Counted from the first letter of the stretch, positions 40,087 to 64,000 are shown. The stretch: DNA of 64,000 bases from Candidatus Levyibacteriota bacterium (GCA_027459745.1 DAIDHL010000001.1:168290-232289); one strand, 5' to 3'. Notes: generated by a model not told the origin, from the sequence alone. Numbers and translations are program-made.

Positions 40087-40578
40087 ATGTTAGATTTCTG
40101 GAAACGAAAACAAACAAAGGTTGTTTCAGTTTTGCTTACCTCAATTCTACATGATGAAACAACATTTTATCAAGCATTCTTAAAAGATTTACAAGCTGCA
40201 AAAAGAGAGGTCATCATTGAGAGTCCGTATATTACGAGTTATCGAATGCGGATGCTTTACCCAATCTTTGCAAAATTACTTCATCGAGGGATAAAAGTAT
40301 TTATCATAACTCGTCCTCCACAAGAGCATGACAGCGAAAAGATGCGTGCACAAGCAGAGATAGAAATTCGTCGCTTTGAACAAATTGGCATTCAAGCACT
40401 CCTTTGTGTTGGTAGTCATCATAGAAAGCTTGCAATGATTGATCGGAATATTTTATGGGAAGGTAGCTTAAATATTCTCTCTCAGTCATACAGTCGGGAA
40501 TATATGCGAAGAATTGCCAGTCACCAAATCACACAGGATACCTTTATATTTTTAAAATTTGATAAGATTATTTATTGA
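40087..40578 (+). CDS. PLD-family (single HKD) nuclease, Nuc-like
   Basis: GSHHRKLAMIDRNILWEGSLN contains HxKx4D; 163 aa as in plasmid Nuc endonucleases; strong RBS AAGGAGG. Confidence 0.7.
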   Translation: MLDFWKRKQTKVVSVLLTSILHDETTFYQAFLKDLQAAKREVIIESPYITSYRMRMLYPIFAKLLHRGIKVFIITRPPQEHDSEKMRAQAEIEIRRFEQIGIQALLCVGSHHRKLAMIDRNILWEGSLNILSQSYSREYMRRIASHQITQDTFIFLKFDKIIY

Positions 40579-40640
40579 GAGTATAAAAATTGTAGTTTAT
40601 GTTTGCGAAAACAGAAAATATGTGGTAGAAAGGAGGTACT

Positions 40641-40877
40641 ATGGACGATAAAAATGTTGCTATTGAAAAATTTGGACTGGTTATTGATGCATTAACGTAT
40701 GCACATGAGAATAATCTGGATATTAACAGCAAGGAAGATGTTAAAAAAATATTACTTGCACTTGAGCATGATCAGGTAAATGATGAGGAAGTTGACGAGT
40801 TTATGCTTTTGCTTCAAGCAGGGAATATGTTTATAGAAAAAGATGCCCAAAAGCGAAAAACATCAATGCTTAATTGA
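40641..40877 (+). CDS. small acidic hypothetical protein
   Basis: 78-aa D/E-rich ORF with RBS GGAGG. Confidence 0.4.
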   Translation: MDDKNVAIEKFGLVIDALTYAHENNLDINSKEDVKKILLALEHDQVNDEEVDEFMLLLQAGNMFIEKDAQKRKTSMLN

Positions 40878-40889
40878 CATAAACGTGCC

Positions 40890-41201
40890 CTACGAGTACT
40901 TCATCCCAAAAGAAGCATCCGACATGAGAAGGTAAATAATCCCTTCGAAAAAACCAATGATGCCTGGAATACCTGTCCAGCAGAAAAACAGATAAATAAC
41001 TCCTTGAATTGGTCTGCCTAAATAGAATTTATGGATACCAATGTCACCTAGAAATATAGCAAGCAAAGCAGCAGTAATTCTGCTTTTCGTTGTTCTCATT
41101 TCCATTTGCGAAGTGAGATTAGTACGCACTTGTCGTCTGTATGCTTCTTCCTCTTCAATTTTCTTTTTTTCTGCTTCAGTGAGTGCCATAAGTGGCAACA
41201 C
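40890..41201 (-). CDS. TM2 domain protein
   Basis: LAIFLGDIGIHKFYLGRPIQGVIYLFFCWTGIPGIIGFFEGIIYL is the TM2 two-helix signature. Confidence 0.65.
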   Translation of the reverse strand: MLPLMALTEAEKKKIEEEEAYRRQVRTNLTSQMEMRTTKSRITAALLAIFLGDIGIHKFYLGRPIQGVIYLFFCWTGIPGIIGFFEGIIYLLMSDASFGMKYS

Positions 41202-41297
41202 TATATCAAATTGTTGAGCTTATTGCTAGATGCTAGAGATACTGGGAGTTAGCAACTTCCGCTTTGGTGGCACGAGCTCTTCTGCTATAATTCAGCC

Positions 41298-42305
41298 ATG
41301 GCAGATAGTATTCCAGTCAACAAATATATAGGGTATTTACGCTATACAGGAGATTTAGTATCGGATGGCATACTCGATGCAAAACAAGCATCAGATGCAC
41401 TTCGTGGTTTTGACGAGATTTTAAGATTTTTTATAACTCGAGAAAATTCTCAGTTACAAACAGTACCTTTTGAGATTCCTGTATTAATACAAAAAGGTAG
41501 TTGGGAAGCTGTCATTCCGGAGATAGTTAGTAAGATATTGAGTCCAACAGGTATCGCTGAAGCAACTAGTGCAACATATTTAACTGTTAGCGCTAAAAAA
41601 GCTGCAACCGATGGTTTTCTTGAGACAGGAGCTGCGAAAGATATAGCAAAAACATTTAAAGCGGGAATAAGGAGTGCTCAGTGGGTTATTAAAATTGCCA
41701 CGCATCTAAAATCGATTTCACGTAAGGATTTGAATCCGAAAATCATTCGGGACGGAAAGGAAATATTTATCGAAATACCAAATGAAGATGGCAAAACGTT
41801 CATTGTGCCTAAAAAATATTATGATCTCTTTATGATATCGCCGGTAAAATTATTTTCTAATCCAGTTCGTCTTGTTGAAAAAGGTAGAATATTCGAATTA
41901 GGAGTATACGACAACGGAAAGGAAGAAAAAGTAACTATATCCGAAGATGAAAAAGGAATATTTTATTCTGGAGAGGAAGAAGAAGTCCTATTTCCTGAAT
42001 TAAAACACGGCCAATCAGTTGAACTTGAAGGTACTATAACAAAAGGCAATGAAAAATCCAATACGATAGGATTCGAATATTTAGGTCATATATTAACTGC
42101 AAAGCCAGCAGAAGGTAGTATTGTTAACTATAAAAATAGAATAGTTTCCTCTAGTGAAGACCATATTTTCCCACGAGTCAAAATTTCAGGCGTTATCGAT
42201 AGAGCTTATGATTTAAAAGAAGGTGAATTACAAAAAAAACGTCCAATGATAGTTTTTATAAAAATAACTCCGATAGATATCCAAAACGAACAACAGCATA
42301 TTTAA
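41298..42305 (+). CDS. hypothetical protein (335 aa, soluble, no recognised domain)
   Basis: ORF with TTGGTG-16-TATAAT promoter-like upstream; no motif recognised. Confidence 0.45.
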   Translation: MADSIPVNKYIGYLRYTGDLVSDGILDAKQASDALRGFDEILRFFITRENSQLQTVPFEIPVLIQKGSWEAVIPEIVSKILSPTGIAEATSATYLTVSAKKAATDGFLETGAAKDIAKTFKAGIRSAQWVIKIATHLKSISRKDLNPKIIRDGKEIFIEIPNEDGKTFIVPKKYYDLFMISPVKLFSNPVRLVEKGRIFELGVYDNGKEEKVTISEDEKGIFYSGEEEEVLFPELKHGQSVELEGTITKGNEKSNTIGFEYLGHILTAKPAEGSIVNYKNRIVSSSEDHIFPRVKISGVIDRAYDLKEGELQKKRPMIVFIKITPIDIQNEQQHI

Positions 42306-42314: not shown

Positions 42315-42926
42315 TTAAGGATCACCTTGTAAAAACGTCCTCGGATTCACAGGAATCCCATACACATTTATTTGGAAATGGACATGCGGCCCCGTTGCAT
42401 TCCCCGTTTCTCCTTCATACCCAATAACATCACCTGTATCAACAGTTGCTCCCACTTTCGTATTCAGTGCTTCCATGTGTCCATAAAGACTCGTGACATG
42501 ATCACCGTTGTCTATAATCACATGTATACCATACCCCGAGTTATCCTCTCCTGCATAAATCACCGTGCCTTTCGCGAATGGATGAATCGGGTCACCTTGT
42601 TCTCCGTTTGGGTCTGCAATATCAATGCCCGTATGCAGAATTTGGTACGGCGGATCCGGTTGTCCAAACTCCAATGTTACGACTCCCTGCATCGGCCACG
42701 CCATTGCAGCAGTGAAATCTGTAATAGTTCCATCAAGATTATGAATCTCAACCGTATTTGTCTTTGTATCAAGAGTAACGAGTTTATCCGATACAGATTG
42801 AAAACCGAAGCTGGTTATTACGATGATGCCAATAAGCGGAAGCAGGAGAATAAAGAGGAACATACCGGCAACAATTTTTAATTCATTGCGAAAGGAGAAA
42901 AGGGTAAAAGCAGCAAAAGGTAGCAT
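42315..42926 (-). CDS. M23 family (LytM) peptidase with N-terminal TM, likely T4SS-associated cell-wall hydrolase
   Basis: HTGIDIA...GTVIYAG...GYGIHVIIDNGDHVTSLYGHM...GETGNATGPHVHFQI. Confidence 0.8.
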   Translation of the reverse strand: MLPFAAFTLFSFRNELKIVAGMFLFILLLPLIGIIVITSFGFQSVSDKLVTLDTKTNTVEIHNLDGTITDFTAAMAWPMQGVVTLEFGQPDPPYQILHTGIDIADPNGEQGDPIHPFAKGTVIYAGEDNSGYGIHVIIDNGDHVTSLYGHMEALNTKVGATVDTGDVIGYEGETGNATGPHVHFQINVYGIPVNPRTFLQGDP

Positions 42927-42929
42927 TGG

Positions 42930-44762
42930 TTAGAGATATATCTCCTTTGGATCTGTTGTCAGCAACGGATGTTCTTTTTCGCTTGCGACTACTTTGACAG
43001 CCACATGATTTTGGTCGGCAATAATCAGTGCCTCGCCTCTATCGCAGGTAAGGAGGAATTGTTGTTCATATTCACTTAAATGAAATTCTTCAGTCACTTT
43101 TTTTATTGTGGTTGTGTCCTGACGCATCAGAATGCGCAAAGAGGACTGTGACGCAATCGCTCGTCCATAATCTTGTCTGAGAAAATCTTGGGCTTGCTGG
43201 GAGATAATTGTAACACCAAGATAATATTTTCTGGCGCGCCGAACCAATCCAGCGATAAATCGTGCACTTTCTTCATGTTCAAGTAACATCCATCCTTCAT
43301 CAATGACGAGAAGGCGTTTCTGCGGATGAGACTTCACTTGAGCATCAACAAAGTTTGCAATCACCACCATCATAATTTGCCGTATGGATTCATGCAGGTC
43401 TTTAATATCAAAAATAACCAATCGGTTATCAAGCTGAATATTGGTTTGTTCATTAAAAACGTTTGCGAGTGAACCTTTGACAAACCGCTCGAGCCGATGA
43501 CAAATATCTTTTTGTTTCATAACTCGAAGTGTCTGGTATAAATCCTCAATAAGTGGGAAATCTTCTTTGGCTTTTCCTTTTTTCTTCTCACTCATGGTAT
43601 ATCCAAAGTTTTTGTATGTTTGTAATATTGCCTTATCCATCACGGCTCGTTCTTCAGGTGATAAACTCCCAACCATTAACGAAATAATTTCAGTGAGATT
43701 TTGGATGTGTTCTGCCAGGGCATTGTCGCCAGTAAATGACACAGTTGAAAAATCAAACGGATTTATCTTTTCTTTACTGGAACTGGATAATTTGATGAAT
43801 GTTCCTTTCACAGATTTTGCCAGTTGTTTATATTCTCCCTCGGGGTCAATGACAATCACTTTCGTCCCCTGCATGAGATGACGAAGGATTTCTACTTTTG
43901 TGGTATAACTTTTCCCACTGCCAGATTGAGCAAAGATTATAGAGTTTGCGTTATTAAGAGAGAAACGATCAACAATAACGAGTGAGTTATTTGATTTATT
44001 TATCCCATACAAAATACCTGACTCTTGAACGAGTTCTGAAGAAACAAACGGAAACGTAAGTGCTGCACTGGAACTATCTAGGTTTCGTCTCTGCATCAAT
44101 ATATTTTCCCCTCGCGGCAAAATAGATTGAATTCCTTCAAGCTGTTGAAACGTTGCAGTTTTGATGTAGAACAAACGACTGGACATAACTGTTTCAAGAA
44201 TTTTAGTGATTTTATTCAACTCCGCTAACGAATCGGCGGTGATTGCCATGTAAATAGAAATTTGAAATAGTTTCTCTTTGCCGCGTTGAATGTTATCTTT
44301 CAACTGAATTGCAGAATCTAATGGGTCAGTGATTTCAGATCCAACAATTCTACCGTTTTTAATCATTGCCCGTTTTGTTGCTTCAAGTTCGGTGATCTTG
44401 CGGTTTAATTTTGGCAAAGCCAGTAGGGGATCAACTTGTTCAATATGGTATGAGATATCTATGTTGTAATTGAAGTTGATCAGCATGTTCAGCCAGCCAG
44501 TACCTGCAACATACGGATAGCCTGAGATAAAAAGTGTACGAATATATGTATCACCCATTTGAATGTATGATGAACTTTCTTCAAGTCCTGAGTACGACAG
44601 GAGATCAATTTGGTCTTGCTCGCCAAAATTAAATTGGAAGGACTTCTTGAGCAACTCCTTCTTCTTGTTTTTTCGTTTTAGCTTCTTACGCAATTGCTTT
44701 GCAAGTTTTTGCATATCAACTGTGGGTAATTTTTGTAATGGTAGTTGGGATAAGTTAAACAT
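42930..44762 (-). CDS. VirB4-family conjugation ATPase, C-terminal 610-aa portion
   Basis: Walker A IFAQSGSGKSYTTK, Walker B RLLVIDEGW; starts with ATG overlapping the stop of the upstream ORF by 8 nt. Confidence 0.8.
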   Translation of the reverse strand: MFNLSQLPLQKLPTVDMQKLAKQLRKKLKRKNKKKELLKKSFQFNFGEQDQIDLLSYSGLEESSSYIQMGDTYIRTLFISGYPYVAGTGWLNMLINFNYNIDISYHIEQVDPLLALPKLNRKITELEATKRAMIKNGRIVGSEITDPLDSAIQLKDNIQRGKEKLFQISIYMAITADSLAELNKITKILETVMSSRLFYIKTATFQQLEGIQSILPRGENILMQRRNLDSSSAALTFPFVSSELVQESGILYGINKSNNSLVIVDRFSLNNANSIIFAQSGSGKSYTTKVEILRHLMQGTKVIVIDPEGEYKQLAKSVKGTFIKLSSSSKEKINPFDFSTVSFTGDNALAEHIQNLTEIISLMVGSLSPEERAVMDKAILQTYKNFGYTMSEKKKGKAKEDFPLIEDLYQTLRVMKQKDICHRLERFVKGSLANVFNEQTNIQLDNRLVIFDIKDLHESIRQIMMVVIANFVDAQVKSHPQKRLLVIDEGWMLLEHEESARFIAGLVRRARKYYLGVTIISQQAQDFLRQDYGRAIASQSSLRILMRQDTTTIKKVTEEFHLSEYEQQFLLTCDRGEALIIADQNHVAVKVVASEKEHPLLTTDPKEIYL

Positions 44763-45348
44763 AGGTATTTGCTAAGAGCATATCAATTGTTTGACCTTTC
44801 AATGCCTGTGTTTTGATTTGAGATGGATTGTAAAAGGAATAAAAAAGATCGAGTAATTCAAGACTTGTTACTTGTCGTGCTTTCATCCCTAATTTTTCTA
44901 TTCCTTTACTCACAATATCTCGTTGCAAGTGAAGATGCTCTTTGACTGTTGCAAAATCGTTCTGTTTTCCGATGTGACGATAAGGAATAACGACGTAAAA
45001 TCGGCGGGAAAGAATTTTATTGCCGGACACCATTTGTTTGATAAAGGAACAATAGGTATCAATTTGCTCTTTGTACATTGTTTCTTTCTCCTGTAATTTT
45101 TTGGCTTTAATCTGTTCCACATAGGAATCAATATCAACTTCACGAACTCTGATTAGCATTTGCAAAGGACAAGGCAATGAGTTTAAAAAGTTTTGAAAGC
45201 TATCAATCAGCACATCTTGCTCTTCCTCACTTTTTAATTCAAAATTAATACTCGATGTTTCAAGCACCAAACGATATTCATTATTTGGTAATACTAAGAT
45301 ATTATCCTTTACTTCTTTAATCTGAATTTGTCGGCGGCTGCTCGCCAT
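44755..45348 (-). pseudogene. VirB4 N-terminal (CagE/TrbE/VirB-type) domain as a separate 197-216-aa ORF, so split or frameshifted virB4
   Basis: YRLVLETSSINFELKSEEEQDVLIDSFQNFLNSLP...RRFYVVIPY aligns to the first 200 aa of VirB4 proteins; combined length 826 aa equals intact VirB4. Confidence 0.5.
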
Positions 45349-45349
45349 C

Positions 45350-45865
45350 TTATTTGATTTGTTCAAGACCAACATCGAGTCCTCCTTTCTTATTTGTTTT
45401 GACAAAAAATGTAAACGCAGGATTTTGCAATACAGTTTCCAGTCGTATCATGTCTGCCCCTTCTAATACGGGAACTACCGTTTTCTCTTTGGCGGTTGAC
45501 CTCATCTTCTTAAAAATTTTGAATGGTTTCTTTTCAATTTTCGGCAGATACATCTCACGTAAGTAGGTCTCATTTTTATTCAGCACATACCATCTTGGTC
45601 GAAGATTATATCGAAGTAAAATACCTGCCCAATTCAAGACAACCTTTCCTTTTATCCGCAGCGAAAGAGTGACACAAATGATCGCAACAATAAACGCGAT
45701 AACAATTTTTATCACACTCACATGGAGTTTCGGTGGAAGAAGAATAAATTCGACTGTTGTCCAGAAGACAGGAACCATTAATAAAAGAAGTTGTGTCAGA
45801 TTTAAACTCCCTGCAATTCGGTCTTCAACTGTCGTAATTTGAGCTGGAATCACTCTTGTTCTCAT
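45350..45865 (-). CDS. small two-TM membrane protein, VirB3-like (putative)
   Basis: Position immediately upstream of virB4, hydrophobic hairpin LLLLMVPVFWTTVEFILL...VIKIVIAFIVAIICV. Confidence 0.35.
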   Translation of the reverse strand: MRTRVIPAQITTVEDRIAGSLNLTQLLLLMVPVFWTTVEFILLPPKLHVSVIKIVIAFIVAIICVTLSLRIKGKVVLNWAGILLRYNLRPRWYVLNKNETYLREMYLPKIEKKPFKIFKKMRSTAKEKTVVPVLEGADMIRLETVLQNPAFTFFVKTNKKGGLDVGLEQIK

Positions 45866-47157
45866 GCGTTGATATACCTCCGTTTTAGTTTCGCTTCAGC
45901 ATTGTCATCTTCGGTATACCCAGCGTTTGACCCCTCTTGTTTGTGTGTCGTCATCGTGTTGACCATCTGACTTCCCATATGAATAAGAGCGCTCAGTCGG
46001 GATGTATAAAACATCATTTGAAACATCCAGGTAGGAATTCGCAGAAGTGTCAAGAAAAGCCCGATTGCAATAACTATTGAAAGAAGAGAACTATCGGGAT
46101 TATCTGGCAACGCGAGGAAAGAGGACGCAAGTTGAATCACAACGACATGAACAAAGATCATGAAAACAGTGACAACGTATCCTTTGACCGCTGCTTCGGC
46201 GAAATCTGAGGTTTTCGGTATTGCCCACATCAGAAATATGAAAGGAGAAAGCACACCGGCAAGGGCAACAAGAATGAGGCGGACGATGTACATAAATAAC
46301 AATATGATGGCCACAATGAGAAAGATAACGAAAAAGATAAGCGTAATTAATTTTGTATTGCCTGTTAAGAGACTCACGGGATTAATTGCATTGACCACCC
46401 ATGCATGATCCAACCCTCCGGTTGTATTAATAACTTCCTTGACAAGAGCATTACATGTTGTGATGACGTAATCACAAAGAAACAAAGAGACATTCGCACC
46501 AAGGAAGGATAATCCAATTCTCGGCAATAAATGTTTGAGTTCTATTTCCTCAAACCCAAAGGTTGATGCAGACATGAAATGTAATCCAAGTAGTGCAACA
46601 ACGACAACAAAGAGTGAATCAACAATTCCTAGACTAATTGCCCAGAAATGAAAGACAACAGAATTTGTGAGAAGACTTGGTGTCGTGGTGAGATAGCTAA
46701 TGATTGCATTCACAATAGGTTGTGTAGCGCTTTGTACTACATCCTGCAATAAGCCAATGACGGCGTTAATAAGGACTTGCGCGACTCCATCGTTGGGTGT
46801 TTGCGTAGCAAGTGGTGAGAGCGTAAGTGCTTGCGTTGTGGTACTTGCAGTGGGGCTAAGTAATGCGCCTTGCAGAAGGGAGATAACAACATTTGCTCCA
46901 AGAACAAGAGCTAATCCGATGACGGCATTTCTGATCGTTTTCTTGGCGTTTTCTAACGCTTCCGGATGACCGGTTGAGGTCATGTAGTGATAGCCGCCTT
47001 TGATTAAAAAAAATGCCGCCGAAGCGGACGCGAGAAGAGTAATCAGTTGCAACGTATCATTCGTGTAGTTGCTCATATCCGTTCCTACTGCAAACACAGG
47101 AGGAACGACCATAAGATATGTAATAGCTCCGAAAAGAGCATAGAAAGTCTTTTTCAT
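45862..47157 (-). CDS. polytopic membrane protein: N-terminal VirB2/TrbC-like pilin domain fused to VirB6/TrbL-like domain
   Basis: Signal peptide MKKTFYALFGAITYLMVVPPVFA; GGYHYMTSTGHPEALENAKKTIRNAVIGLALVLGANVV paralogous to the adjacent pilin-like gene; more than 6 further TM segments; start moved to MKK at 47157 (RBS GGAG). Confidence 0.55.
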   Translation of the reverse strand: MKKTFYALFGAITYLMVVPPVFAVGTDMSNYTNDTLQLITLLASASAAFFLIKGGYHYMTSTGHPEALENAKKTIRNAVIGLALVLGANVVISLLQGALLSPTASTTTQALTLSPLATQTPNDGVAQVLINAVIGLLQDVVQSATQPIVNAIISYLTTTPSLLTNSVVFHFWAISLGIVDSLFVVVVALLGLHFMSASTFGFEEIELKHLLPRIGLSFLGANVSLFLCDYVITTCNALVKEVINTTGGLDHAWVVNAINPVSLLTGNTKLITLIFFVIFLIVAIILLFMYIVRLILVALAGVLSPFIFLMWAIPKTSDFAEAAVKGYVVTVFMIFVHVVVIQLASSFLALPDNPDSSLLSIVIAIGLFLTLLRIPTWMFQMMFYTSRLSALIHMGSQMVNTMTTHKQEGSNAGYTEDDNAEAKLKRRYINA

Positions 47158-47170
47158 ACTATAAATACTC

Positions 47171-47512
47171 CTACTGAGCAGCCTGTGCTGTACCAAAGGC
47201 AGTCGTTGCAAGATCTGAAACGATGTGCGAGAGTACAAATGCACCAAGCACAACAGCTAAACCAACAGCTGAGTACATAATTGTTTTTTTTGATCGATCG
47301 AGCTGTTCAGGATTTCCTGAACTTGTAATGTAGCCAATTCCTCCCATGACGAAGAACCCGACTGAGATAGCAGCTGCAAGAGAAACGAGTACTTGCACAA
47401 TACTTTGAATAAATGTCTGAATTTTTGTGACATCTGCAGAAGCTGCAAAGGCTGGAGTTACAACGATAAGAGAAGTTATTAGAACTGCTTGTAGGTAGAT
47501 AATTTTTCTCAT
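47171..47512 (-). CDS. VirB2/TrbC-like conjugative pilin
   Basis: Signal peptide, then GGIGYITSSGNPEQLDRSKKTIMYSAVGLAVVLGAFVL two-helix pilin architecture. Confidence 0.6.
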   Translation of the reverse strand: MRKIIYLQAVLITSLIVVTPAFAASADVTKIQTFIQSIVQVLVSLAAAISVGFFVMGGIGYITSSGNPEQLDRSKKTIMYSAVGLAVVLGAFVLSHIVSDLATTAFGTAQAAQ

Positions 47513-48883: not shown

Positions 48884-48915
48884 CGATTAAGCTCTAAAAT
48901 CTTCTTCAGATCTCT

Positions 48916-48980: not shown

Positions 48981-48983
48981 TAT

Positions 48984-54853: not shown

Positions 54854-54858
54854 TATGT

Positions 54859-55368
54859 ATGGTATCAATTCGAAAAATATTCCTGCCCACTATCGTTATT
54901 TCAGTTTTTTATATTCTCCTTTTTACGTACTTTCGTAACTTCAATCTTGTTAATACAACACTCATAAATAATACACCGATTCTCTATAAAATAAAGCTGT
55001 TTTCTATCCTTATTGAAGGACTTTCCTCAACGATGACTCAAGTGGGTTTACTTTTAATGTTTCTGACCGGATTTCTAATAGGGTTAAATCTAACGCTGAT
55101 GTTTCAAAAAGTCGCATTTTTAAAACAAGCGGGATCTGTAAAGTTTGTTGCAGGTGGCAGTTCTTTTTTTGGAGTAATTAGCGGAGGCTGTGCATCTTGT
55201 GGGCTGCCTGTTCTATCTCTATTTGGATTAAGTGGCGCAGTTGCTTATCTTCCTTTTAAAGGTGTTGAATTACCATATATTTCTCTTATCCTCCTTTCTG
55301 CATCACTGTTTTTCTTATTACGAAATAAAACCCAACTGCAAGTCTGCGAAGTCAAAAAGACAAAATGA
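54859..55368 (+). CDS. membrane protein with GGCASCG motif
   Basis: 4 predicted TM helices; CxxC in a Gly-rich loop. Confidence 0.4.
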   Translation: MVSIRKIFLPTIVISVFYILLFTYFRNFNLVNTTLINNTPILYKIKLFSILIEGLSSTMTQVGLLLMFLTGFLIGLNLTLMFQKVAFLKQAGSVKFVAGGSSFFGVISGGCASCGLPVLSLFGLSGAVAYLPFKGVELPYISLILLSASLFFLLRNKTQLQVCEVKKTK

Positions 55369-56336: not shown

Positions 56337-56367
56337 TTTTTCGGTATAATAACTGATGTAAAATTAC

Positions 56368-57063
56368 TTGTATATGAAACGTCAACAAATTCTTATAGGG
56401 ATTGTTCTAATTGCTACAGTAGCATTAGGATACTTTGTGCTTAATCCATCAGCACTTATTTCACTCATAAATCCAAATAATCCAGATGTGGTACATGCGC
56501 AATTACTTTCTACCTATAACTCAATTCCTACCTCATCTGGAAAGAACGCATTTTTGAAACAAAGTAATAATCTGACCACAAAAGTTGATACGGAATTAGC
56601 AGATTTAGATAGCGAAATTATTTCTTGTGACGCAAATGTTGATAATCTCATGTCTACTGGTAGTATTGGTGGCAGTTGTGTAGGTGGTGGTACAACGTTG
56701 CCAACTGCAAAAGGAAAGTTCTTAGGTGGACAATGCTGTGGAGCCATGACTACTACCAAAGATTATCATGCGCAACTACAGAAGTTGCAGGTATATAAAA
56801 ATATTCCAGATATGCCTCTAAATCCCTATAAAACGCCAGTAGAATTAGCAAAAAAATGGATTGATGTTGATAAATCAACAACCTTATCAGCAGACCAGCA
56901 AAAAGTCTTTAATCAAGCATTAAGCATGTCAAAGGAAGGGCCATGTTGCTGTAAGTGTTGGCATTATTATGTGAATGAAGGGATTGCAAAAAAGATGATT
57001 CAAGATAACGGGTGGACTGGACAACAAGTTGCACAATTTTGGGATAATTCTAGTATTTGCTAA
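56368..57063 (+). CDS. membrane-anchored Cys-rich exported protein (GQCCGAM; GPCCCKCWHYY)
   Basis: N-terminal TM, CC motifs similar to 55365-56336. Confidence 0.45.
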   Translation: MYMKRQQILIGIVLIATVALGYFVLNPSALISLINPNNPDVVHAQLLSTYNSIPTSSGKNAFLKQSNNLTTKVDTELADLDSEIISCDANVDNLMSTGSIGGSCVGGGTTLPTAKGKFLGGQCCGAMTTTKDYHAQLQKLQVYKNIPDMPLNPYKTPVELAKKWIDVDKSTTLSADQQKVFNQALSMSKEGPCCCKCWHYYVNEGIAKKMIQDNGWTGQQVAQFWDNSSIC

Positions 57064-57098
57064 AAATCTTTACTATACTACGTCTTGTAGGAACTGTT

Positions 57099-58055
57099 AT
57101 GAAAAAATCATTACCAATTATTGTTATCGTTGTTCTTGTAATCATTGGGATTATCTATATTACAACAAAAAATAGTAGTAATTCCAATATGCAAGGAATG
57201 CATATGATGAATGGCAGTAGCATGCAGGGTATGGATATGGGCGATAAGCAGTCAGCAGCCCAAAGCAATCGAACCTACACCTACACACTCCAATTAACAT
57301 CTTCAACAAGTAATTTACAACCGAATCAACAGACGACAATCACTTATAAAATTGTAGACGATCAAGGGAATATTTTAAAAGATTATGCTCTTGACCATAC
57401 AAAATTAATGCATTTTATTGTTGTGAGAAAAGATTTACAGGATTTTCAACATATTCATCCTGATTTCAATAAGAACACAGGTGAGTTTCGTATTCCTGTT
57501 ACCTTTCCGGAGATAGGGACATATCGGTTATTTGCCGATTTTACACCTGCAAATGGGCAAAAAGATGCACAAGGTGATATTTTAAGTGTTACGCCATATA
57601 AAGATGTAAATGTGGGAGACATCACAAAATATACACCGCAAGCAGTAACACCTGATACCCAGACAATAAAAACAGTAGGAGACTTTCAAATCACCTATAC
57701 GCTTCCACAACCGTTACAGGCAAACAAGTCCGCTACTATCACAGCTCACGTAACTAAAAACGGACAACCTGTTACTGATATGCAAGAATATTTAGGGGCA
57801 TTAGCACACGGTATTTTACTCAAACAAGACACATTAGATTTTGCTCATTTACACGATATGGGGCAAATGGGGAGTGGTAGTATGCAAGGAATGAGCATGC
57901 AGAACATGAATACAGGCAATGCTAAAATAACCAATACGGGTCCTAATATTACCTTTACCTATTCATTTCCTTCAAGTGGGGTATATAAACTCTTTACGCA
58001 ATTTGAAGAACAAGGTAACGTGATAACAACAGACTATACAATGCAGGTGCAATAA
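57099..58055 (+). CDS. Met/His-rich exported protein, putative Cu-binding
   Basis: Signal/TM MKKSLPIIVIVVLVII; MQGMHMMNGSSMQGMDMGD and HLHDMGQMGSGSMQGMSMQNM Met-motifs; start re-picked at 57099. Confidence 0.5.
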   Translation: MKKSLPIIVIVVLVIIGIIYITTKNSSNSNMQGMHMMNGSSMQGMDMGDKQSAAQSNRTYTYTLQLTSSTSNLQPNQQTTITYKIVDDQGNILKDYALDHTKLMHFIVVRKDLQDFQHIHPDFNKNTGEFRIPVTFPEIGTYRLFADFTPANGQKDAQGDILSVTPYKDVNVGDITKYTPQAVTPDTQTIKTVGDFQITYTLPQPLQANKSATITAHVTKNGQPVTDMQEYLGALAHGILLKQDTLDFAHLHDMGQMGSGSMQGMSMQNMNTGNAKITNTGPNITFTYSFPSSGVYKLFTQFEEQGNVITTDYTMQVQ

Positions 58056-58090
58056 TACTGATTGAAGTTATTGCAAAATATAAGTTTTTT

Positions 58091-58864
58091 ATGAACAAAT
58101 TTTCTTCTTCACCTGTCACGCATCACATTGCAACTAAAGTTCCAGAGATCACTCTCATCTTTTGGATTATTAAACTACTCTCTACTGCGATGGGTGAATC
58201 AACCACTGACTATTTTGTTTACCAATTTAATCCCTACATTATTGTAGTACTTGGATTTATTGGCTTGGCCGCTGCGCTTACATTACAATTTTTTAGACGT
58301 CGTTATATTGCATGGATTTATTGGTTAACAATTGTCATGGTTGCCATATTTGGAACAATGGCAGCAGATGTTGCACATATTGTCATAGGAGTGCCCTATT
58401 TTATATCGACACTATGTTTTTCACTAGTACTTGGTATCGTTTTCTTCTCTTGGTATTTCAGTGAAAAAACACTATCTATCCATAGTATCTATACACGCCG
58501 AAGAGAATTGTTTTATTGGGCAACGGTTATGGCAACATTTGCTCTTGGTACCGCTGCAGGTGATATGACTGCTTCAACGCTGCACTTAGGATACTTTTCA
58601 TCATTTATTATATTTGTCATATTGTTTGCTCTCCCCGCTGTAGCATATAAGCTATTTGGGTTAAATGAGATTATTGCTTTTTGGTTTGCCTATGTCATCA
58701 CCCGACCACTCGGTGCGACATTTGCCGATTGGTTAGGAAAATCAATTCTCGGTGGTCTTGGAATAGGTGATGGAAAAGTAGCTTTGGTATTGACGATATT
58801 AATTATTATTTTTGTTGGCTATGTGACAGTCACAAAAACTGATGTAGATAATATGAAACTATAG
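58091..58864 (+). CDS. polytopic membrane protein, function unknown
   Basis: About 7 hydrophobic segments with internal duplication. Confidence 0.45.
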   Translation: MNKFSSSPVTHHIATKVPEITLIFWIIKLLSTAMGESTTDYFVYQFNPYIIVVLGFIGLAAALTLQFFRRRYIAWIYWLTIVMVAIFGTMAADVAHIVIGVPYFISTLCFSLVLGIVFFSWYFSEKTLSIHSIYTRRRELFYWATVMATFALGTAAGDMTASTLHLGYFSSFIIFVILFALPAVAYKLFGLNEIIAFWFAYVITRPLGATFADWLGKSILGGLGIGDGKVALVLTILIIIFVGYVTVTKTDVDNMKL

Positions 58865-58879
58865 TCAAAAACCCAGTAC

Positions 58880-59884
58880 TTATTCTGTATTATTTATGAT
58901 TGTTTTCGCTCCAGAAATGTACCCATAAGAATTCCATGATATATTGAGATAATGCAATAATGCTTGTCCGGTCATATATCCAGGTCGCACACGAAAGAGA
59001 AAATACCTATTCTGCTGGTTTTGCTCATTTCCTGCAATTGTTGACGCTGCTGTCGTGAATCCTGCCTGCTTTACAACACTGAGTGTCTGTGCATCAAATG
59101 CACCATAAGGATAGGCAAAGGAATAGACATGGATATGATATTCTTGCTCAAGCATCGTTTTGCTGGTATCAACTTCCTCTTGTACATATGCGAGCGGTTT
59201 CCCTTTCAGTAATACGTGATGAACAGTATGCGCACCAATGTCCACCAGACCACTGTTAACAACGTCTTGGAGCTCTTTTGGAGTAAGGGAGTCAGAGTTC
59301 GTACCCACAAAGCCTGGGACGATATATGCCGTTACTTTTATATGGTATTTTTTCAAAATTGGTAGAACGTTTGTGTCTAAATCCCAATGTCCATCATCAA
59401 ATGTCAAAATTATTGGATTTTGGGGAAGTGGCATCTTTCCATCAAGGATATCTCCTAATTCTTTTGCAGTAATAAAGGTATATCCGGCTTGCAAAAGGGT
59501 TTGAATTTGCTCTTCAAAGACGTTTGGGTCAACATTTAAAAGTTGACGTTCTGTATCTTTGGTATTTTGTACGTACTCAACGTAATGGTACATAAGAATA
59601 GGCACATGCAGCGTTGCAGAGATACTTGCTGTGTGTGTTTGTTGCTGGAGGACTTTTCTCACATCGGATGGTATCTTTTTCAGAGAGTTTTTCTCAGTTT
59701 CAGGAACCATTTTTTGATGTAAAGACGATGTTCTATAGAACAAAAAGCCTCCAAGTAAAGTAAGGATTGCTATAGCAATAAGTAATGGTATATATCGTTT
59801 TTGATGCAATACTTCCCCAAGGAGACTTTTTTTAAGAATTATTTTATTTTTCTGACGACGTCTTTTACGTTGTTGCACTGGCAT
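58880..59884 (-). CDS. polysaccharide deacetylase (NodB homology), membrane anchored
   Basis: ILTFDDGHWD...HTVHH motifs of CE4. Confidence 0.75.
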   Translation of the reverse strand: MPVQQRKRRRQKNKIILKKSLLGEVLHQKRYIPLLIAIAILTLLGGFLFYRTSSLHQKMVPETEKNSLKKIPSDVRKVLQQQTHTASISATLHVPILMYHYVEYVQNTKDTERQLLNVDPNVFEEQIQTLLQAGYTFITAKELGDILDGKMPLPQNPIILTFDDGHWDLDTNVLPILKKYHIKVTAYIVPGFVGTNSDSLTPKELQDVVNSGLVDIGAHTVHHVLLKGKPLAYVQEEVDTSKTMLEQEYHIHVYSFAYPYGAFDAQTLSVVKQAGFTTAASTIAGNEQNQQNRYFLFRVRPGYMTGQALLHYLNISWNSYGYISGAKTIINNTE

Positions 59885-59970: not shown

Positions 59971-60198
59971 TCAGAAGGGAATCAAGTCTTTTATCTTCAC
60001 TCCCAAAACTTGCGAAATCTTATACATCGTCTCAAAGGCAGGGAAGTTATATCCTGCTTCAATATATGCAATAGACGTTAAGGCTAATCCCGCTCTTTCT
60101 GCAAGCTGTTCTTGGGTTAACCCTTTCTCTTTTCTCAACTTCTGAATATGTCTTCCCAACGTTTGCCGCATATTATTTAGTTTAGTATCATTACTCAT
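59971..60198 (-). CDS. XRE-family HTH regulator
   Basis: LRKEKGLTQEQLAERAGLALTSIAYIEAG; C-terminus similar to the XRE at 33989-34213. Confidence 0.8.
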   Translation of the reverse strand: MSNDTKLNNMRQTLGRHIQKLRKEKGLTQEQLAERAGLALTSIAYIEAGYNFPAFETMYKISQVLGVKIKDLIPF

Positions 60199-60230: not shown

Positions 60231-60303
60231 TATTAGTCTATGACTAATAATGCATCTTGACAACCTGCAAACTTTGAGGCAATATATTAGTCATAGACTA
60301 ATA
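60231..60303 (+). promoter_or_regulatory. divergent switch region: two 19-bp palindromes TATTAGTC-TAT-GACTAATA (60231-60249) and TATTAGTC-ATA-GACTAATA (60285-60303) flanking TTGACA (60257-60262) -35
   Basis: Both palindromes perfect; second overlaps the -10 of the rightward promoter. Confidence 0.6.
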
Positions 60304-60306
60304 AGT

Positions 60307-60651
60307 ATGGAGCTATATCTAGAAGATATTGTATGGGGGAATAGGCTGTACGTTAACGCACAGTTTACAGTTACATTTGTATCATTGCTTCAAAAGTATG
60401 CGCAAGGGAAAATTCCTCTCGCCTACTTCTTTTCTTATGCTCATGCTATAAAAATGCAACGAAAAATCATACTTTATAAAGATTTAGCCAGACAAATAGA
60501 TGAGATTACTACTCTTGAAGATCTCATTAAGACAGGAAAGGTAACTCTTCGTGATGTTCGTGTGATCCACTACATTATAAATCGGGTGTATATCCAGCTT
60601 ACAGGAGCCCCCTTAGACTTTGTAAGAACTTCTAACGATACATTATCTTAA
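60307..60651 (+). CDS. hypothetical protein (114 aa) downstream of the XRE-controlled promoter
   Basis: ORF track starts at 60250 but that overlaps the promoter; internal ATG 60307. Confidence 0.45.
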   Translation: MELYLEDIVWGNRLYVNAQFTVTFVSLLQKYAQGKIPLAYFFSYAHAIKMQRKIILYKDLARQIDEITTLEDLIKTGKVTLRDVRVIHYIINRVYIQLTGAPLDFVRTSNDTLS

Positions 60652-60681
60652 TCCCTACCTCTGTTAAGGGCTGCGCCCCTC

Positions 60682-60776
60682 TTTTGCAAGGGTATATAAA
60701 CGAAGTCGTTGCTTCGCCCTTGCAAAATTCACCCTGCTATTGCATCGCAGGTATAGGAAGCAGGCAGGCTGCTTCC
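60682..60776. other. GC-rich non-coding segment with three consecutive hairpins, candidate oriT or structured RNA
   Basis: TTTTGCAAGGG...(nested CGAAG/CTTCG)...CCCTTGCAAAA; CCTGC-9-GCAGG; GGAAGCAG-5-CTGCTTCC. Confidence 0.35.
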
Positions 60777-60821
60777 TAAAAAATATTTTCAAATATACGC
60801 AGCCAGAAAGGGGTGAATAAA

Positions 60822-61160
60822 ATGAATCCAGTAATTACAGCAGATTTCTCACAATTTGGTATACGAGAACTGACCTTTGCACAGCTATTACTCAAAGCAT
60901 ATGCAGAAAGAGGTGCCGATTTTTTAGGGTGTGGGTTAACAGTCAATTTCAATACACACAGTGGGTATGTTTTCTTATCGGATGAAGATTACAACGTTGG
61001 TGTACTCGATGAAACAGAAGAATACATCGTGCAATTTTACTCATGCCCACAATGTGGCTATGAAGGGACACAACAAGAAGCAGTGGATAATGGCTGTGAC
61101 TTCGTTAAAAACGACGGGTACTGTTCGAAAAAATGCTACGAGCGTGAGTGGAGTTGTTAA
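60822..61160 (+). CDS. Cys-rich small protein with zinc-ribbon-like CPQCG...C..C
   Basis: ATG 60822 after GGGG Shine-Dalgarno; ORF track starts at GTG 60813. Confidence 0.45.
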   Translation: MNPVITADFSQFGIRELTFAQLLLKAYAERGADFLGCGLTVNFNTHSGYVFLSDEDYNVGVLDETEEYIVQFYSCPQCGYEGTQQEAVDNGCDFVKNDGYCSKKCYEREWSC

Positions 61161-61669
61161 AAAAATTCTGCCCACCTGCCCATAATATTATTTGACAATC
61201 TACCAGCAGAACAATATACTGAGGTTATTATCATGGAGAATGGCGAACAATCAGAACAACGGCCACAACAATTTCAGGAATACGGAGACGTAAACCTCCT
61301 GATGACCAATGGAGTAATATAACTATTACTCGCCCACTACGTGGAGGCAAGACAGAACAGATAGAACTTCGGTTCCCTTTACGACTACAGAACTAGATAC
61401 CATAAATGCAGCCAGACAAGCGAGGGATACACTTGCGGATGAAGCATTAGCAGGAAGTGGTCATGTGCGAACTTTTTATACCCAGGAATCAATACCGCAA
61501 GGCTATTCACTGCAAGATAGATCAAGTGCAGTACAATCAATGCGAAAAGCCGCAATGTATGCAGCAACACTTCTTGATCGACCTGGCATTTCAAACCCAT
61601 CAAGGGCAACATTGACGACAGTAGTTGATACACTGCAGCCATTCCTTGCTCCTAAGAAGGGATAAATAG

Positions 61670-62434
61670 CTAGTCAACAGTTTCCCAAATATTTACATTA
61701 GATTGTGCAAAGCGAATTTTATCTTTGGTTGTCACAAAAAAGGAAATGTCAGCAAATGATTTCTCCAGTACCGCCTTTCCGTAATATACAATATGCTTTT
61801 TCATTCGCTCATTTGCACAAATAAATAATATAGTTGGAAACGGCGCATCATCTGTATTTGTACTCCAATCTCCTTCGTCAAGGTATTTCAAGTATCCTTG
61901 CAGTCGCCCCCGAATAACACGGGAAGGAGTCGCTTCGTCAAAATAGTCGAGAAAGTATCGCTCAACTTTGTCCTTTGCCAGTTCTGTAATATACGCATCA
62001 GGTAATGGCTCAGGAAAATAATCATACATCCATAATTCAGATTGGGTAAAATAGTCTACTAGTGTACTTTCTCCTTTCTGTTCACAAAAGAAAAAATAAA
62101 GGTCAGCAATAAAAAGATTTCGATTAATAAAATTTTTCGTCTTTGTTTTTTCTTTGTATAACCACCGAAGTAAATTGGGATTGCATGCTTCATTTTCTTT
62201 AAGAATATGTCGTGACTTACTCTCCAAATGAAAGATATATGGTTTTGTCACATTACTTTTATCTGATATACAACCAATATATCCTTTTTCTTTTAAATCT
62301 GTTACCCATGCTTTAATGCGATGGGGGTCTTTGTGATGAAAGAGTTTTTGGAGATGAGAAATAGTAAGAAAGCGGAATCGATAGAGTTGATATTGTAGTT
62401 CTTTTTCTTTTTTAGTGGTCGGTGGTAATACCAT
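61670..62434 (-). CDS. Replic_Relax-like protein, paralog of 37179-37958
   Basis: LYRFRFLTISHLQKLF...IKAWVTDLKEKGYI...FVTTKD. Confidence 0.5.
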   Translation of the reverse strand: MVLPPTTKKEKELQYQLYRFRFLTISHLQKLFHHKDPHRIKAWVTDLKEKGYIGCISDKSNVTKPYIFHLESKSRHILKENEACNPNLLRWLYKEKTKTKNFINRNLFIADLYFFFCEQKGESTLVDYFTQSELWMYDYFPEPLPDAYITELAKDKVERYFLDYFDEATPSRVIRGRLQGYLKYLDEGDWSTNTDDAPFPTILFICANERMKKHIVYYGKAVLEKSFADISFFVTTKDKIRFAQSNVNIWETVD

Positions 62435-62581
62435 AGAGTTTATTAAAATATATCTGTTTGTGAGTCCATTTCGATCCTCTTATATACTATATAAGAATAA
62501 GAAGGATGTATTTCTCATAAAAATAGATTCAAAACCAACAAATTTATGTACCCACACGTAGGTACAATTCGTCGGTACTAT

Positions 62582-64000
62582 TCATTGTCCTTTTTTGCGC
62601 TTGGGTAATCGGTTATTTGTTACAGATTCCTCCTTCGTTCCATTGTCTTCTTTGTTAGTCTTCTCATCATTTGTAAATGTAGGTTTGATTACTGCTTTTG
62701 TTATTTTTTTGACTATTTTCTTCACGTAAATAATCGCATAATTCTTCCTCGATGCTTCAATCAACCGTTGTATTCTTATCTGATCTTTAACAATTGCCTC
62801 TTTGATTGTTTCTCCTGAGAATGGTTCTTCTGATTCAAGGGCAGTAATTTTAATATAGAATCGAAAACGGGGAAGATTCATGATTTCTCCCTTTTGTAAG
62901 AACGGTGCAAATTGCGAAAGCAATAAGTCTTCATCAATGGGATTACCTGTTCGGAAACTGACAATGGTTGTGACATTAGCTAAGATAACGGGAACAATTG
63001 TTCTATCTTGTTGCTGAGACGTTGACTGCTCGGCAATGATTAACCGTAGTCCATATTTACGTCCCTCGGCAAGCAACTTGGTAAATGATTGGGTTGCAAA
63101 GTTTTGGAATTCATCAACATAGAGATAAAATGGTCTTCGTGTTTCTTCTGGAATGTTTGCCCGTTTGAGTGCTGCTTGTTGCAGTTTTGTTAGTATCGTT
63201 ATTCCTAACAGTCGTGATGTATCTTCACCGATGCGTTGTGAGAAATTACAGATGAGGATTTTCCCATTTAATATTTCATCAAAGTTAATGGTTGACTTTG
63301 GTTGTTCCAATATGCGTCTCGCAGTAGGCGATCGGAAGAATCGACTTACCTTTGCTGTGACACCTTGTGTCATTTTGACGACTTGGAAGTCACCTGCTTT
63401 GCCAAATTCATATTTCCAAAAGTCGAGTAATTCCTCATCGTCAGTTATTTTTTTGAGGACATCATTTCTGAATTTTGGGTTCGATAATATTTTATTCAAT
63501 GTGAATAATGTTGCGTCTTCGACATAAAATGCTGTATAAATCGTTTGTCGAAGGATATGCTCAATGCGATGGGCATTGGCATGTTCTTCTTTGGAGAAGA
63601 CTTTGCGAAAGAGCGAAACAACACCCTCTGTGACTGTTTCTTTTTCCAGTTCTGTCTCATCGTCATCTAATCCCTTGGTCAATTCCAATACGTTGATCCC
63701 AACTGGATATTTCAAATCGGCTGGATTAACGTACACAAGATCATTGATACGTTCTTCAGGGATCGTCGCGAGTAATTCTTGTGCCACATCACCATGCGGA
63801 TCAATAAAAGCAATCCCTCTGCCTTTTTGGATATCTTCCATTGCCATACGAAACATCATGGTTGTTTTCCCACTTCCGGTTCTTCCCAGAATATACATGT
63901 GCGTTGCCCGCTGCTCGTCAGTTAGACCAATTTCTGTTGTTATGCCTCCATAGGTATTTTTAGCAAAGACGACATCCAATTGTTTGCCTTGTTTAAGCGA
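62582..64000 (-). CDS. type IV coupling protein-like ATPase (TraG/VirD4/TcpA-like), N-terminus beyond window
   Basis: Walker A GRTGSGKTT, IDPHGD, Walker B YLYVDEFQNF; reading frame stays open to the window edge. Confidence 0.7.
   Translation of the reverse strand, partial: SLKQGKQLDVVFAKNTYGGITTEIGLTDEQRATHMYILGRTGSGKTTMMFRMAMEDIQKGRGIAFIDPHGDVAQELLATIPEERINDLVYVNPADLKYPVGINVLELTKGLDDDETELEKETVTEGVVSLFRKVFSKEEHANAHRIEHILRQTIYTAFYVEDATLFTLNKILSNPKFRNDVLKKITDDEELLDFWKYEFGKAGDFQVVKMTQGVTAKVSRFFRSPTARRILEQPKSTINFDEILNGKILICNFSQRIGEDTSRLLGITILTKLQQAALKRANIPEETRRPFYLYVDEFQNFATQSFTKLLAEGRKYGLRLIIAEQSTSQQQDRTIVPVILANVTTIVSFRTGNPIDEDLLLSQFAPFLQKGEIMNLPRFRFYIKITALESEEPFSGETIKEAIVKDQIRIQRLIEASRKNYAIIYVKKIVKKITKAVIKPTFTNDEKTNKEDNGTKEESVTNNRLPKRKKGQ

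Follow-up and report, generated by a model that had tools for sequence, protein, structure and literature searches.

Type IV secretion systems (T4SSs) are widespread in the Patescibacteria, for which candidate phyla radiation (CPR) is another name. In the survey of Quinonero-Coronel et al. 2025, VirB4 was found in 2,417 of 3,035 Patescibacteria genomes and forms a monophyletic clade inside MPF_FATA (PMC12102498). TrsD, PrgI, VirB2-like pilins and M23-type hydrolases are encoded near virB4, and VirB6 is described as "scarce" in Microgenomatia (PMC12102498). The same survey counted 5,713 type IV coupling proteins (T4CPs), only 148 of them near virB4, and 109 relaxases (58 of them MOB_C) in 103 of the 3,035 genomes, with 15 relaxases near virB4 and 39 near t4cp (PMC12102498). 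The Patescibacteria T4SSs were judged mostly non-conjugative (PMC12102498), a judgement that rested on the lack of detected relaxases. The same view is taken in a 2025 review, with emphasis on the essential role of the T4SS in Saccharibacteria (PMC12857230).

Here, we describe a T4SS locus in a stretch of 64,000 nucleotides from a Candidatus Levyibacteriota genome (GCA_027459745.1, DAIDHL010000001.1:168290-232289), which will be called the window. The DNA from 33.4 kb to beyond 64 kb is best explained as accessory DNA made of two integrated elements side by side, for which we will use the terms element A and element B. Element B, which spans ~39988 to beyond 64000, carries a T4SS, a T4CP and a candidate relaxase, and it is probably, though by no means securely, an integrative conjugative element (ICE) of a family found widely across the Patescibacteria. 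In itself the T4SS module is no novelty, since it has already been described for Patescibacteria (PMC12102498), and the statement of the original prediction that conjugative elements are rarely described in such genomes is outdated as far as the T4SS is concerned. What appears to be new from sequence comparison is the context, in which a serine recombinase, a T4CP with a divergent MOB_C-type protein, a structured cis element and a T4SS are tied into one recurrent unit.

CPR bacteria account for a large share of bacterial diversity and live attached to other cells, and their gene exchange is poorly understood. The recurrent unit and the exchange of the T4SS challenge the "non-conjugative" view. 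Candidate relaxase, origin of transfer (oriT) and integrase sequences make conjugation in the CPR concretely testable, and the family would be a vehicle for defence and metal-resistance genes in reduced genomes.

The six-gene T4SS block and its relatives

The T4SS block occupies 42315-47512 on the minus strand. Genes were called from a listing of open reading frames (ORFs) and from Pfam and NCBIfam profile scans. The operon runs from 47512 down to 42315, and all six of its genes are intact.

47171-47512, minus strand: VirB2/TrbC-like pilin of 113 aa, first gene of the operon (PF18895, PF04956, NF045849)
45862-47157, minus strand: 431-aa protein with a signal peptide, a VirB2-like pilin domain (T4SS_pilin, 37.5 bits) and a polytopic VirB6/TrbL-like domain
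45350-45865, minus strand: PrgI/VirB3-like membrane protein with hydrophobic N-terminal segments (PF12666, 20.2 bits; the ortholog in locus L002 reaches 33.4 bits against a cutoff of 27)
44755-45405, minus strand: TrsD-like protein, the detached N-terminal domain of VirB4 (TrsD, TraC_F_IV, N-terminal positions of VirB4 models)
42930-44762, minus strand: VirB4 ATPase, the C-terminal two thirds of a canonical VirB4 (NF045971, P-loop_TraG, AAA_10)
42315-42926, minus strand: M23 peptidoglycan hydrolase with an N-terminal transmembrane (TM) segment, the VirB1 analogue (PF01551, 93 bits)

These genes match their orthologs in five other genomes in length and order. VirB4 scores 357.8 bits against the NCBIfam model NF045971 (conju_CD1110), above the curated cutoff of 325, and has the Walker A motif AQSGSGKS and the Walker B motif LLVIDE. 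More than 3,900 VirB4 homologs were found, and the best 120 are 74-83% identical, with named sources that are nearly all Patescibacteria. The TrsD-like ORF, whose true start is probably near 45375, aligns to the N-terminal 170-280 positions of the CD1110 and Mbov_0397 VirB4 models. As a result, VirB4 is considered to be split into two ORFs, as in the TrsD/TrsE pair of pGO1. The system is a monoderm, minimal T4SS of the MPF_FATA/CD1110 type. The original prediction of a Gram-positive-type minimal T4SS is supported by the VirB4 score. The genes listed in it (M23, VirB4 with Walker motifs, VirB3-like, pilin, Replic_Relax and T4CP) are all present and intact, and the Pfam and NCBIfam matches support the VirB4, T4CP and pilin families.

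The second gene of the operon was predicted to be a VirB6 fused to a pilin, and this fusion was considered unusual. The pilin domain is sound, and two T4SS_pilin domains above the cutoff are found in the block. The fused protein has eight hydrophobic segments, with about six TM segments beyond the pilin domain, and it does not overlap the pilin gene if the ATG at 47157, which has a ribosome-binding site, is taken as its true start. The pilin-polytopic fusion is present in every ortholog examined (57-81% identity), and it is therefore a norm of the family rather than a peculiarity of this locus. The VirB6 assignment is weaker. The only VirB6/TrbL signal is a near full-length, sub-threshold match to TrbL_4 (E = 4e-4) in the L003 ortholog, and VirB6 homology is weakly supported, with a fitting position and topology. 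A VirB6-like profile gave no match among PDB sequences, and the single-sequence AF2 model of the protein is of unusable quality (pLDDT 46). In comparison with the scarcity of VirB6 reported for Microgenomatia, the pilin-fused polytopic protein holds that position in the window.

The block is a member of the Patescibacteria-clade T4SS family. The shared features are a VirB4 in MPF_FATA, a TrsD-like N-domain ORF, PrgI/VirB3, pilin genes, an M23-type hydrolase downstream, the lack of outer-membrane components and a Microgenomatia host. The position of the M23 gene is conserved across all orthologous blocks. The T4SS of Southlakia epibionticum (Wang et al. 2023), as cited in PMC12102498, is counted with the same clade. 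Unlike the published Patescibacteria T4SSs, the window block lies on the same strand as a pair of T4CP and MOB_C-like genes and 15 kb downstream of it, in accessory DNA, and it has been exchanged horizontally.

The MPF_FATA systems of Firmicutes (CTn CD1110 of C. difficile, TrsD/TrsE of the pGO1 Trs system, PrgI of pCF10) are also similar to the window in several components: a VirB4 that scores above the CD1110 cutoff in the window, a TrsD-like N-domain, a PrgI-like VirB3, a hydrolase of the cell wall, a T4CP of the VirD4 type and a relaxase of the MOB_C class, which in the window is a candidate. On the other hand, the Firmicutes systems have no VirB2-like pilins and have surface adhesins and a transglycosylase/CHAP hydrolase, while the window has an M23 hydrolase and six genes only, with no PrgL/VirB8-like or adhesin gene found. 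Mycoplasma ICEs share with the window a wall-less or monoderm host with a small genome and a minimal T4SS, and they encode a small, pilin-like membrane protein as well as a VirB4 from the same broad clade. The Mycoplasma ICE models score 33.4 bits against a cutoff of 40 for NF045849 (Mbov_0395) and 312 against 590 bits for NF045975 (the Mbov_0397 VirB4). In contrast to the window, Mycoplasma ICEs have a DDE transposase and no M23 hydrolase.

The VirB4 gene also bears on a degraded prophage, the scenario that had been set beforehand as the one to refute an ICE-like element. Residues 65-323 of VirB4 match phrog_2666, labelled "terminase large subunit" (116 bits), a 335-aa ORF of element B matches phrog_32975, and serine recombinases are also used by phages. 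However, the match of VirB4 to the conjugative CD1110 model is three times stronger and nearly full-length, and the genes around it encode pilins, PrgI, TrsD, a T4CP and a protein of a relaxase family. The Pfam and PHROG scans found no capsid, portal, tail or lysis-cassette genes. Since virion structural and packaging genes are missing from these scans, the scenario was rejected, and a prophage origin is extremely improbable. The phrog_2666 family probably represents VirB4/HerA-like ATPases or carries a misleading label. This label is a trap for the automated phage calling of such elements.

The host background is that of a small CPR genome, as had been predicted. The left half of the window encodes CTP synthase, UvrB, PEP synthase, a type IV pilus (T4P) cluster, phosphoglucomutase and Dus, and the relatives of UvrB and VirB4 belong to genomes that carry the names Levybacteria, Microgenomates, Daviesbacteria or Patescibacteria. 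The taxonomy of these relatives points to a Levybacteria-like (Microgenomatia, CPR) host. The nearest relative, GCA_027459725.1, has 93% identity in UvrB, 95% in CTP synthase and 97% in LexA, with a conserved core gene order. Its T4SS is on another contig, between NUDIX and polysaccharide-synthesis genes. In a distant Levybacteria genome UvrB is only 76% identical, yet the T4SS is closer to that of the window. The identities to the window proteins are as follows.

VirB4: 82% in GCA_027459725.1, 83% in the distant genome
TrsD: 73% in GCA_027459725.1, 79% in the distant genome
M23: 73% in GCA_027459725.1, 78% in the distant genome
VirB6-like: 65% in GCA_027459725.1, 81% in the distant genome
Pilin: 65% in GCA_027459725.1, 76% in the distant genome
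PrgI-like: 53% in GCA_027459725.1, 62% in the distant genome

For all six T4SS proteins the identities conflict with those of the core, and in each of the five contexts examined the block has different flanks. The composition of the block is deviant as well. Its GC content is 0.399, compared with a maximum of 0.375 among core windows of equal size, its GC3 is 0.34-0.41 against 0.26-0.33 in the core, and its tetranucleotide distance exceeds the core maximum. The incongruence, the differing flanks and the deviant composition show that the T4SS block is exchanged horizontally, at least within the lineage of the host. A GC content above that of the left half of the window had been predicted for the region as a whole. 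The rise is limited to the T4SS block and 59.9-61.7 kb, and it does not extend to a 12-kb stretch of cargo (0.358, against 0.357 in the core); the GC content of element A is 0.344. With the deviation confined to the T4SS block, GC was not accepted as support for the element as a whole.

The coupling protein module and its structured element

Upstream of the T4SS operon, at the right edge of the window, element B carries the following features.

62582-64000, minus strand: VirD4-type T4CP, the C-terminal ~470 aa of a ~850-aa protein (TrwB_AAD_bind, TraG-D_C, T4SS-DNA_transf)
61670-62434, minus strand: RR2, a Replic_Relax protein and candidate relaxase of the MOB_C type for element B (PF13814)
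60813-61160, plus strand: small Cys-rich ORF o115, directly 3' of the structured element, with a homolog in L027 only
60665-60784, plus strand: conserved ~120-nt structured non-coding element with four helices, recognised by blastn conservation, covariation and a covariance model (CM)

The T4CP has the motifs GRTGSGKT (Walker A) and FYLYVDE (Walker B) and is 67% identical to residues 396-827 of the 851-aa T4CP of L003. Its frame is still open at base 64000, where it is cut by the edge of the window and not by a mutation, so the gene and the element extend past the window. In the loci of relatives the T4CP of this family carries an extra N-terminal DUF8128 domain.

RR2 has a paralog, RR1, in element A, and the two are 33% identical. 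A precomputed PF13814 match is present in 13 of 23 RR homologs. About half of them are thus without a Pfam match, which may explain an undercounting of this family in surveys. A profile built from 18 homologs found 1,450 representative clusters at 50% identity, 912 of them at E <= 1e-10, among 1.84 billion proteins. The AF2 model of RR2 (pLDDT 91.7) has an N-terminal winged helix and a C-terminal alpha/beta nuclease-type domain. Among solved structures, the best Foldseek matches of this model are FokI (E = 1.5e-4), the nickase Nt.BspD6I and BstEII, together with MarR-type winged helix-turn-helix (wHTH) proteins. The model suggests that the RR proteins combine a wHTH with a restriction-endonuclease-like domain. 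MOB_C relaxases were reportedly described as endonuclease-like by Francia and co-workers in 2013. PF13814 is the MobC relaxase superfamily that is recognised by CONJscan (Coluzzi et al. 2017, PMC5357655), and RR2 is therefore regarded as a MOB_C-type candidate, whose function as a relaxase is suggested by its family and modelled fold. No match to RR2 was found in PLSDB plasmids by tblastn, and the RR proteins and small ORFs have no matches in NCBIfam.

A T4CP scan with one genome per species gave 80 loci, and the window proteins were mapped onto each of them. The canonical order is serine recombinase (minus), the small ORF o92 (minus), T4CP (plus), Replic_Relax (plus), a small ORF (minus), variable DNA and then the T4SS genes from pilin to M23 (plus). 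Of the 69 loci with room to show it, 67 have RR no more than 3.5 kb downstream of the T4CP, and a divergent serine recombinase lies upstream of the T4CP in 39 of 46. The T4SS was found downstream of the T4CP, on the same strand and within ~10 kb, in 13 of 47 loci, where we estimate that ~0.5% would be expected for one T4SS placed independently in a ~1-Mb genome. All 16 linked cases agree in the order and strand of the T4CP-RR pair relative to the T4SS, with 1.6-17 kb of unrelated cargo between them. The window, a Levybacteria contig (L005 and L001) and a WWE3 contig (L035 and L002) have the same order with 15-17 kb between the modules. In the compact loci L003/L012 and L087, the recombinase, T4CP, RR and T4SS lie within ~12 kb, beside housekeeping genes.

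Many of the module contigs come from metagenome-assembled genomes (MAGs) with unexpected labels, such as Methanobacterium, Micrarchaeota, Woesearchaeota, Omnitrophota, Anaerolineae, Methylococcaceae, Limisphaerales, Clostridiales and "uncultured Gammaproteobacteria/Pseudomonadales" (L013, L015-L017, L019-L022, L028, L030, L032, L048, L071, L079, L081 and others). Mis-binning or mislabelling of mobile-element contigs is the most likely explanation, and the labels could also hint at transfer into other (host) organisms.

The structured element has a blastn identity of 70-91% in 26 loci, mostly above the ~70% of the neighbouring coding sequences. Its helices are separated by an invariant single-stranded TCACCC(C/T)GCT motif. 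In an alignment of 16 sequences, 93.8% of the cells are paired, compared with 43-61% when the partners are slid, and compensatory double changes occur in 16 of 29 pairs, compared with 6.7 +/- 1.5 in shuffles. None of 500 shuffles matches the observed value on any of five measures. The CM has matches in ~59 loci, with one copy per T4CP-RR module, downstream of RR and always on the opposite strand, as in L003:7001-7123(-), L008:12905-13027(-) and L087:6637-6760(-). The CM found no copy in loci that have a T4SS and no T4CP-RR pair, nor in the core locus. Rfam has no match to the element at the gathering or a permissive threshold, and a snoRNA match in Rfam at 60428-60536 was put down to chance (E = 0.043).

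The ORF that follows the structured element is not conserved. In the window it is o115, which is unrelated to the DUF2958 gene that holds the same position in L003 and L005. For this reason a gene-specific 5' leader was down-weighted, and the element looks like a cis element of the mobility module. The best guess is that it is a candidate oriT, and the alternative is a regulatory RNA or a promoter region. Taken together, the Replic_Relax proteins next to the T4CP, most of which score near or under the Pfam threshold, and the structured element may tentatively be the "missing" relaxase and oriT of the Patescibacteria T4SSs, an idea that we hold with rather low confidence. If true, a large, so far unrecognised family of serine-recombinase ICEs and integrative mobilizable elements (IMEs) would include, or be served by, many of the Microgenomatia T4SSs. 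Such elements would shuttle defence and metal-resistance cargo among CPR bacteria, and the view that the T4SS was co-opted away from conjugation would be overturned.

A close known parallel to the module without its T4SS is the streptococcal IME_Class_8 (PMC5357655), which has the same compact set of a VirD4-type coupling protein, a PF13814/MobC relaxase and a serine integrase. IME_Class_8 has no T4SS, while in the family of the window there are at least 16 cases of a T4SS coming after the module, and the T4CP has the extra DUF8128; element A differs in having no coupling protein. The analogy leads to a second reading, which we consider possible and distinctly less probable than an ICE. The mobile units would be the ~6-kb modules of recombinase, o92, T4CP, RR and structured element, with some cargo, and they would insert near a resident chromosomal T4SS and borrow it, a system whose main role would lie in epibiotic contact with host cells. 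The window would then contain two IMEs, one of them without a T4CP, flanking a genomic island with the T4SS. Element A shows that a T4SS-less version of ~6.4 kb exists, and the trio of serine recombinase, VirD4 and MobC is a known IME architecture (PMC5357655). Two T4CP modules are present in one genome (L006 and L008), Patescibacteria have 5,713 T4CPs and 2,474 VirB4s, and the T4SS is described as chromosomal and, for Saccharibacteria, as essential (PMC12102498, PMC12857230). In L003 the structured element ends ~113 bp before the pilin gene, as the terminus of an element might. A resident T4SS is, however, at odds with the constant order and strand in the 16 linked cases despite the intervening cargo, with the incongruence of the T4SS block and its different contexts in close relatives, and with its off-core composition. 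Also, similar types of cargo recur between RR and the T4SS.

Elements A and B and their putative mobility

Element A covers 33568-39987 (6.4 kb) and consists of two small ORFs, GmrSD, RR1, o92 and the serine recombinase, bracketed by a direct repeat of 171 nt.

33397-33567, plus strand: left copy of the repeat, a detached 3' coding end of the recombinase gene and putative left edge of element A
33669-33992, plus strand: small ORF without Pfam, PADLOC or PHROG matches
34274-34678, plus strand: second small ORF, likewise without Pfam, PADLOC or PHROG matches
34696-37131, minus strand: GmrSD-N/HEPN fusion of 811 aa, the defence cargo of element A (PF03235, 107 bits; HEPN_Swt1)
37179-37958, minus strand: RR1, a candidate MOB_C-type relaxase with no adjoining T4CP gene (PF13814)
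38204-38482, plus strand: small conserved ORF o92, the partner of the recombinase
38484-40016, plus strand: large serine recombinase of 510 aa (PF00239, 118.7 bits; PF07508; PF13408)
39817-39987, plus strand: right copy of the repeat, within the 3' end of the recombinase gene and putative junction of elements A and B

The recombinase has an N-terminal YIRVSSEEQ motif and the Resolvase, Recombinase and Zn_ribbon_recom domains, and it is 52% identical to the L003 recombinase. Homologs of o92 lie immediately upstream of the recombinase gene in ~25 loci. No family match to o92 was found in the scans, and it is possible that it is a directionality factor or a regulator. The GmrSD fusion consists of a DUF262 domain, a Swt1-like HEPN domain and a C-terminal extension, and it corresponds to the PADLOC candidate systems PDC-M55C and HEC-05.

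The two repeat copies were found by repeat search and pairwise alignment. They are 96% identical with abrupt edges. The left copy sits within a 137-aa ORF, 6.4 kb upstream of the right one. In a self-BLAST of all loci, none of the other elements turned out to be flanked by a comparable repeat. Large serine recombinases create no long repeats. For both reasons, the repeat is likelier to be a scar than an att site, and it more likely reflects tandem accretion or homologous recombination between related recombinase genes.

In relatives the recombinase gene adjoins the T4CP gene, which in this case is at or beyond the right edge of the window. The visible recombinase is therefore most likely that of element A and not of element B, judging from this synteny. 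Element A can be interpreted as the canonical module minus the T4CP and plus a defence gene, and hence as a relative of element B. Since it has neither a T4CP nor a T4SS, it would be mobilizable at best. The original prediction of an ICE-like element with a serine recombinase beside the T4SS module must be revised accordingly. The T4SS, T4CP and candidate relaxase are indeed linked across genomes and the recombinase gene is intact, but it probably serves the separate small element A. The predicted limits of 40087-64000 are also too narrow on both sides, with the T4CP open at 64000 and the recombinase, RR1 and GmrSD to the left of the start.

The preferred reading of element B as an ICE gives the following order on the minus strand. 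A serine recombinase and a small ORF are predicted beyond the window, followed by the T4CP, RR2, the small ORF with the structured element, a regulator with ~12 kb of metal/redox cargo, the six-gene T4SS operon, TM2 and PLD. Because the T4CP is cut by the edge of the window, the recombinase of element B is predicted only, by synteny with 39 of 46 relatives. From what is known of these families, this recombinase would excise element B as a circle. The wHTH-nuclease RR2 would then process an oriT, with the structured element as the leading candidate for this site, and the T4CP would pass the DNA to the channel powered by the split VirB4. The M23 hydrolase would open the cell wall, and the pilin or pilins would contact the recipient.

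Several observations weigh against this reading. The left end of element B is putative, and its right end and the recombinase assigned to it are predicted to lie beyond the window. Neither att sites nor circular junctions nor empty sites were found, and the repeat search gave only the 171-nt repeat around element A. Both RR1 (25.1 bits) and RR2 (19.7 bits) score below the PF13814 cutoff of 25.3. RR2 stays a candidate relaxase, and the structured element a candidate oriT. The Pfam scans found no VirB8/PrgL-like domain in any ORF of 40-64 kb, a component that is seldom detected in Patescibacteria (PMC12102498). In 34 of 47 T4CP loci there is no T4SS within 10 kb, an observation that also favours the resident T4SS described above. 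In L005 the 8.6 kb upstream of the T4CP contain no recombinase, and some copies may therefore be immobile. The 12-kb cargo is core-like in composition, which would make it old or of local origin. Patescibacteria genomes have about one VirB4 and about two T4CPs each, the VirB4 phylogeny tracks class, and the T4SS is essential for epibiotic growth in Saccharibacteria (PMC12102498). These three points fit a resident, non-conjugative T4SS.

Some of the same observations lead to a third reading, in which the locus is a domesticated or decaying former ICE. The T4SS would have been co-opted for the exchange of protein or DNA with the basibiont, and the recombinase and relaxase would be relics. The core-like cargo, the L005 T4CP without a nearby recombinase and the VirB8 homolog that was not found are all compatible with decay. 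The 171-nt repeat and the loss of a T4CP beside RR1 could be scars of rearrangement, and most Patescibacteria T4SSs have been published as non-conjugative (PMC12102498). On the other hand, all mobility and T4SS ORFs visible in the window are intact and of ortholog length, and the Walker motifs of T4CP and VirB4 are kept. The RR family is large and under selection, given its 912 representative clusters, the pairing of the structured element is kept through compensatory changes, and the exchange of the T4SS block is recent. We consider such a former ICE rather unlikely.

In L005, two BrnT/BrnA-type toxin-antitoxin pairs, a PLD homolog and an HTH gene (L005:5105-7115 / 5775-6233) are present where the recombinase normally sits. 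This arrangement may reflect a circular permutation, or L005 may be an immobilised copy with no recombinase.

Cargo and flanking genes of element B

The remaining features of element B lie on both sides of the T4SS operon.

40087-40578, plus strand: PLD-like protein of the nuclease/phospholipase family at the distal end of element B (PLDc_2)
40890-41201, minus strand: membrane protein with a TM2 domain, encoded on the strand of the T4SS operon (PF05154)
41298-42305, plus strand: 335-aa cargo protein between M23 and TM2, on the opposite strand (phrog_32975 full-length, E = 5e-58)
47690-59884: ~12 kb of metal/thiol-redox cargo (Pfam)
59971-60198, minus strand: HTH_3 (Cro/CI-type) regulator, divergent from ORF o133

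A PLD homolog neighbours the T4SS in L002, another lies close to the T4CP in L005, and a TM2 homolog (57% identity) lies directly after M23 in L087. The 335-aa protein has no Pfam, NCBIfam or PADLOC match and no counterpart in the related loci.

On the plus strand, a coherent metal/thiol-redox set spans 47690-58864. The ~12-kb cargo encodes YibE/F, a CsoR repressor, an ArsP-type permease, an NAD-binding reductase with a C-terminal membrane anchor and an HMBD-MauE fusion. Further cargo consists of a BlaI/BlaR1-type pair, which is possibly CopY/CopS-like, DsbA/thioredoxin, Cys-rich secreted proteins, a Met-rich YtkA-like protein, DUF347 and a polysaccharide deacetylase. In relatives, the DNA downstream of RR carries defence cargo, namely restriction-modification systems of type I and type ISP and a SMODS system, and, in six loci, metal/redox genes. 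BlaI, DsbA, CsoR and YtkA kinds of cargo are found at this position in L015, L016, L020, L022, L027 and L035.

A T4P cluster is present in the core, at 15441-23232 on the plus strand, with a PilB-like T2SSE ATPase, a PilC-like T2SSF protein and several ORFs, one of which encodes 668 aa with an N-terminal methylation motif. T4P are reported to mediate the attachment of Patescibacteria to their hosts, and this cluster could cooperate with the T4SS.

Finally, two perfect 19-bp inverted repeats, at 60231-60249 and 60285-60303 (TATTAGTCTATGACTAATA and its complement, 100% complementary), flank the start codon of o133. Together with the HTH_3 regulator, these repeats are likely the operator pair of a regulatory switch of the Cro/CI type.

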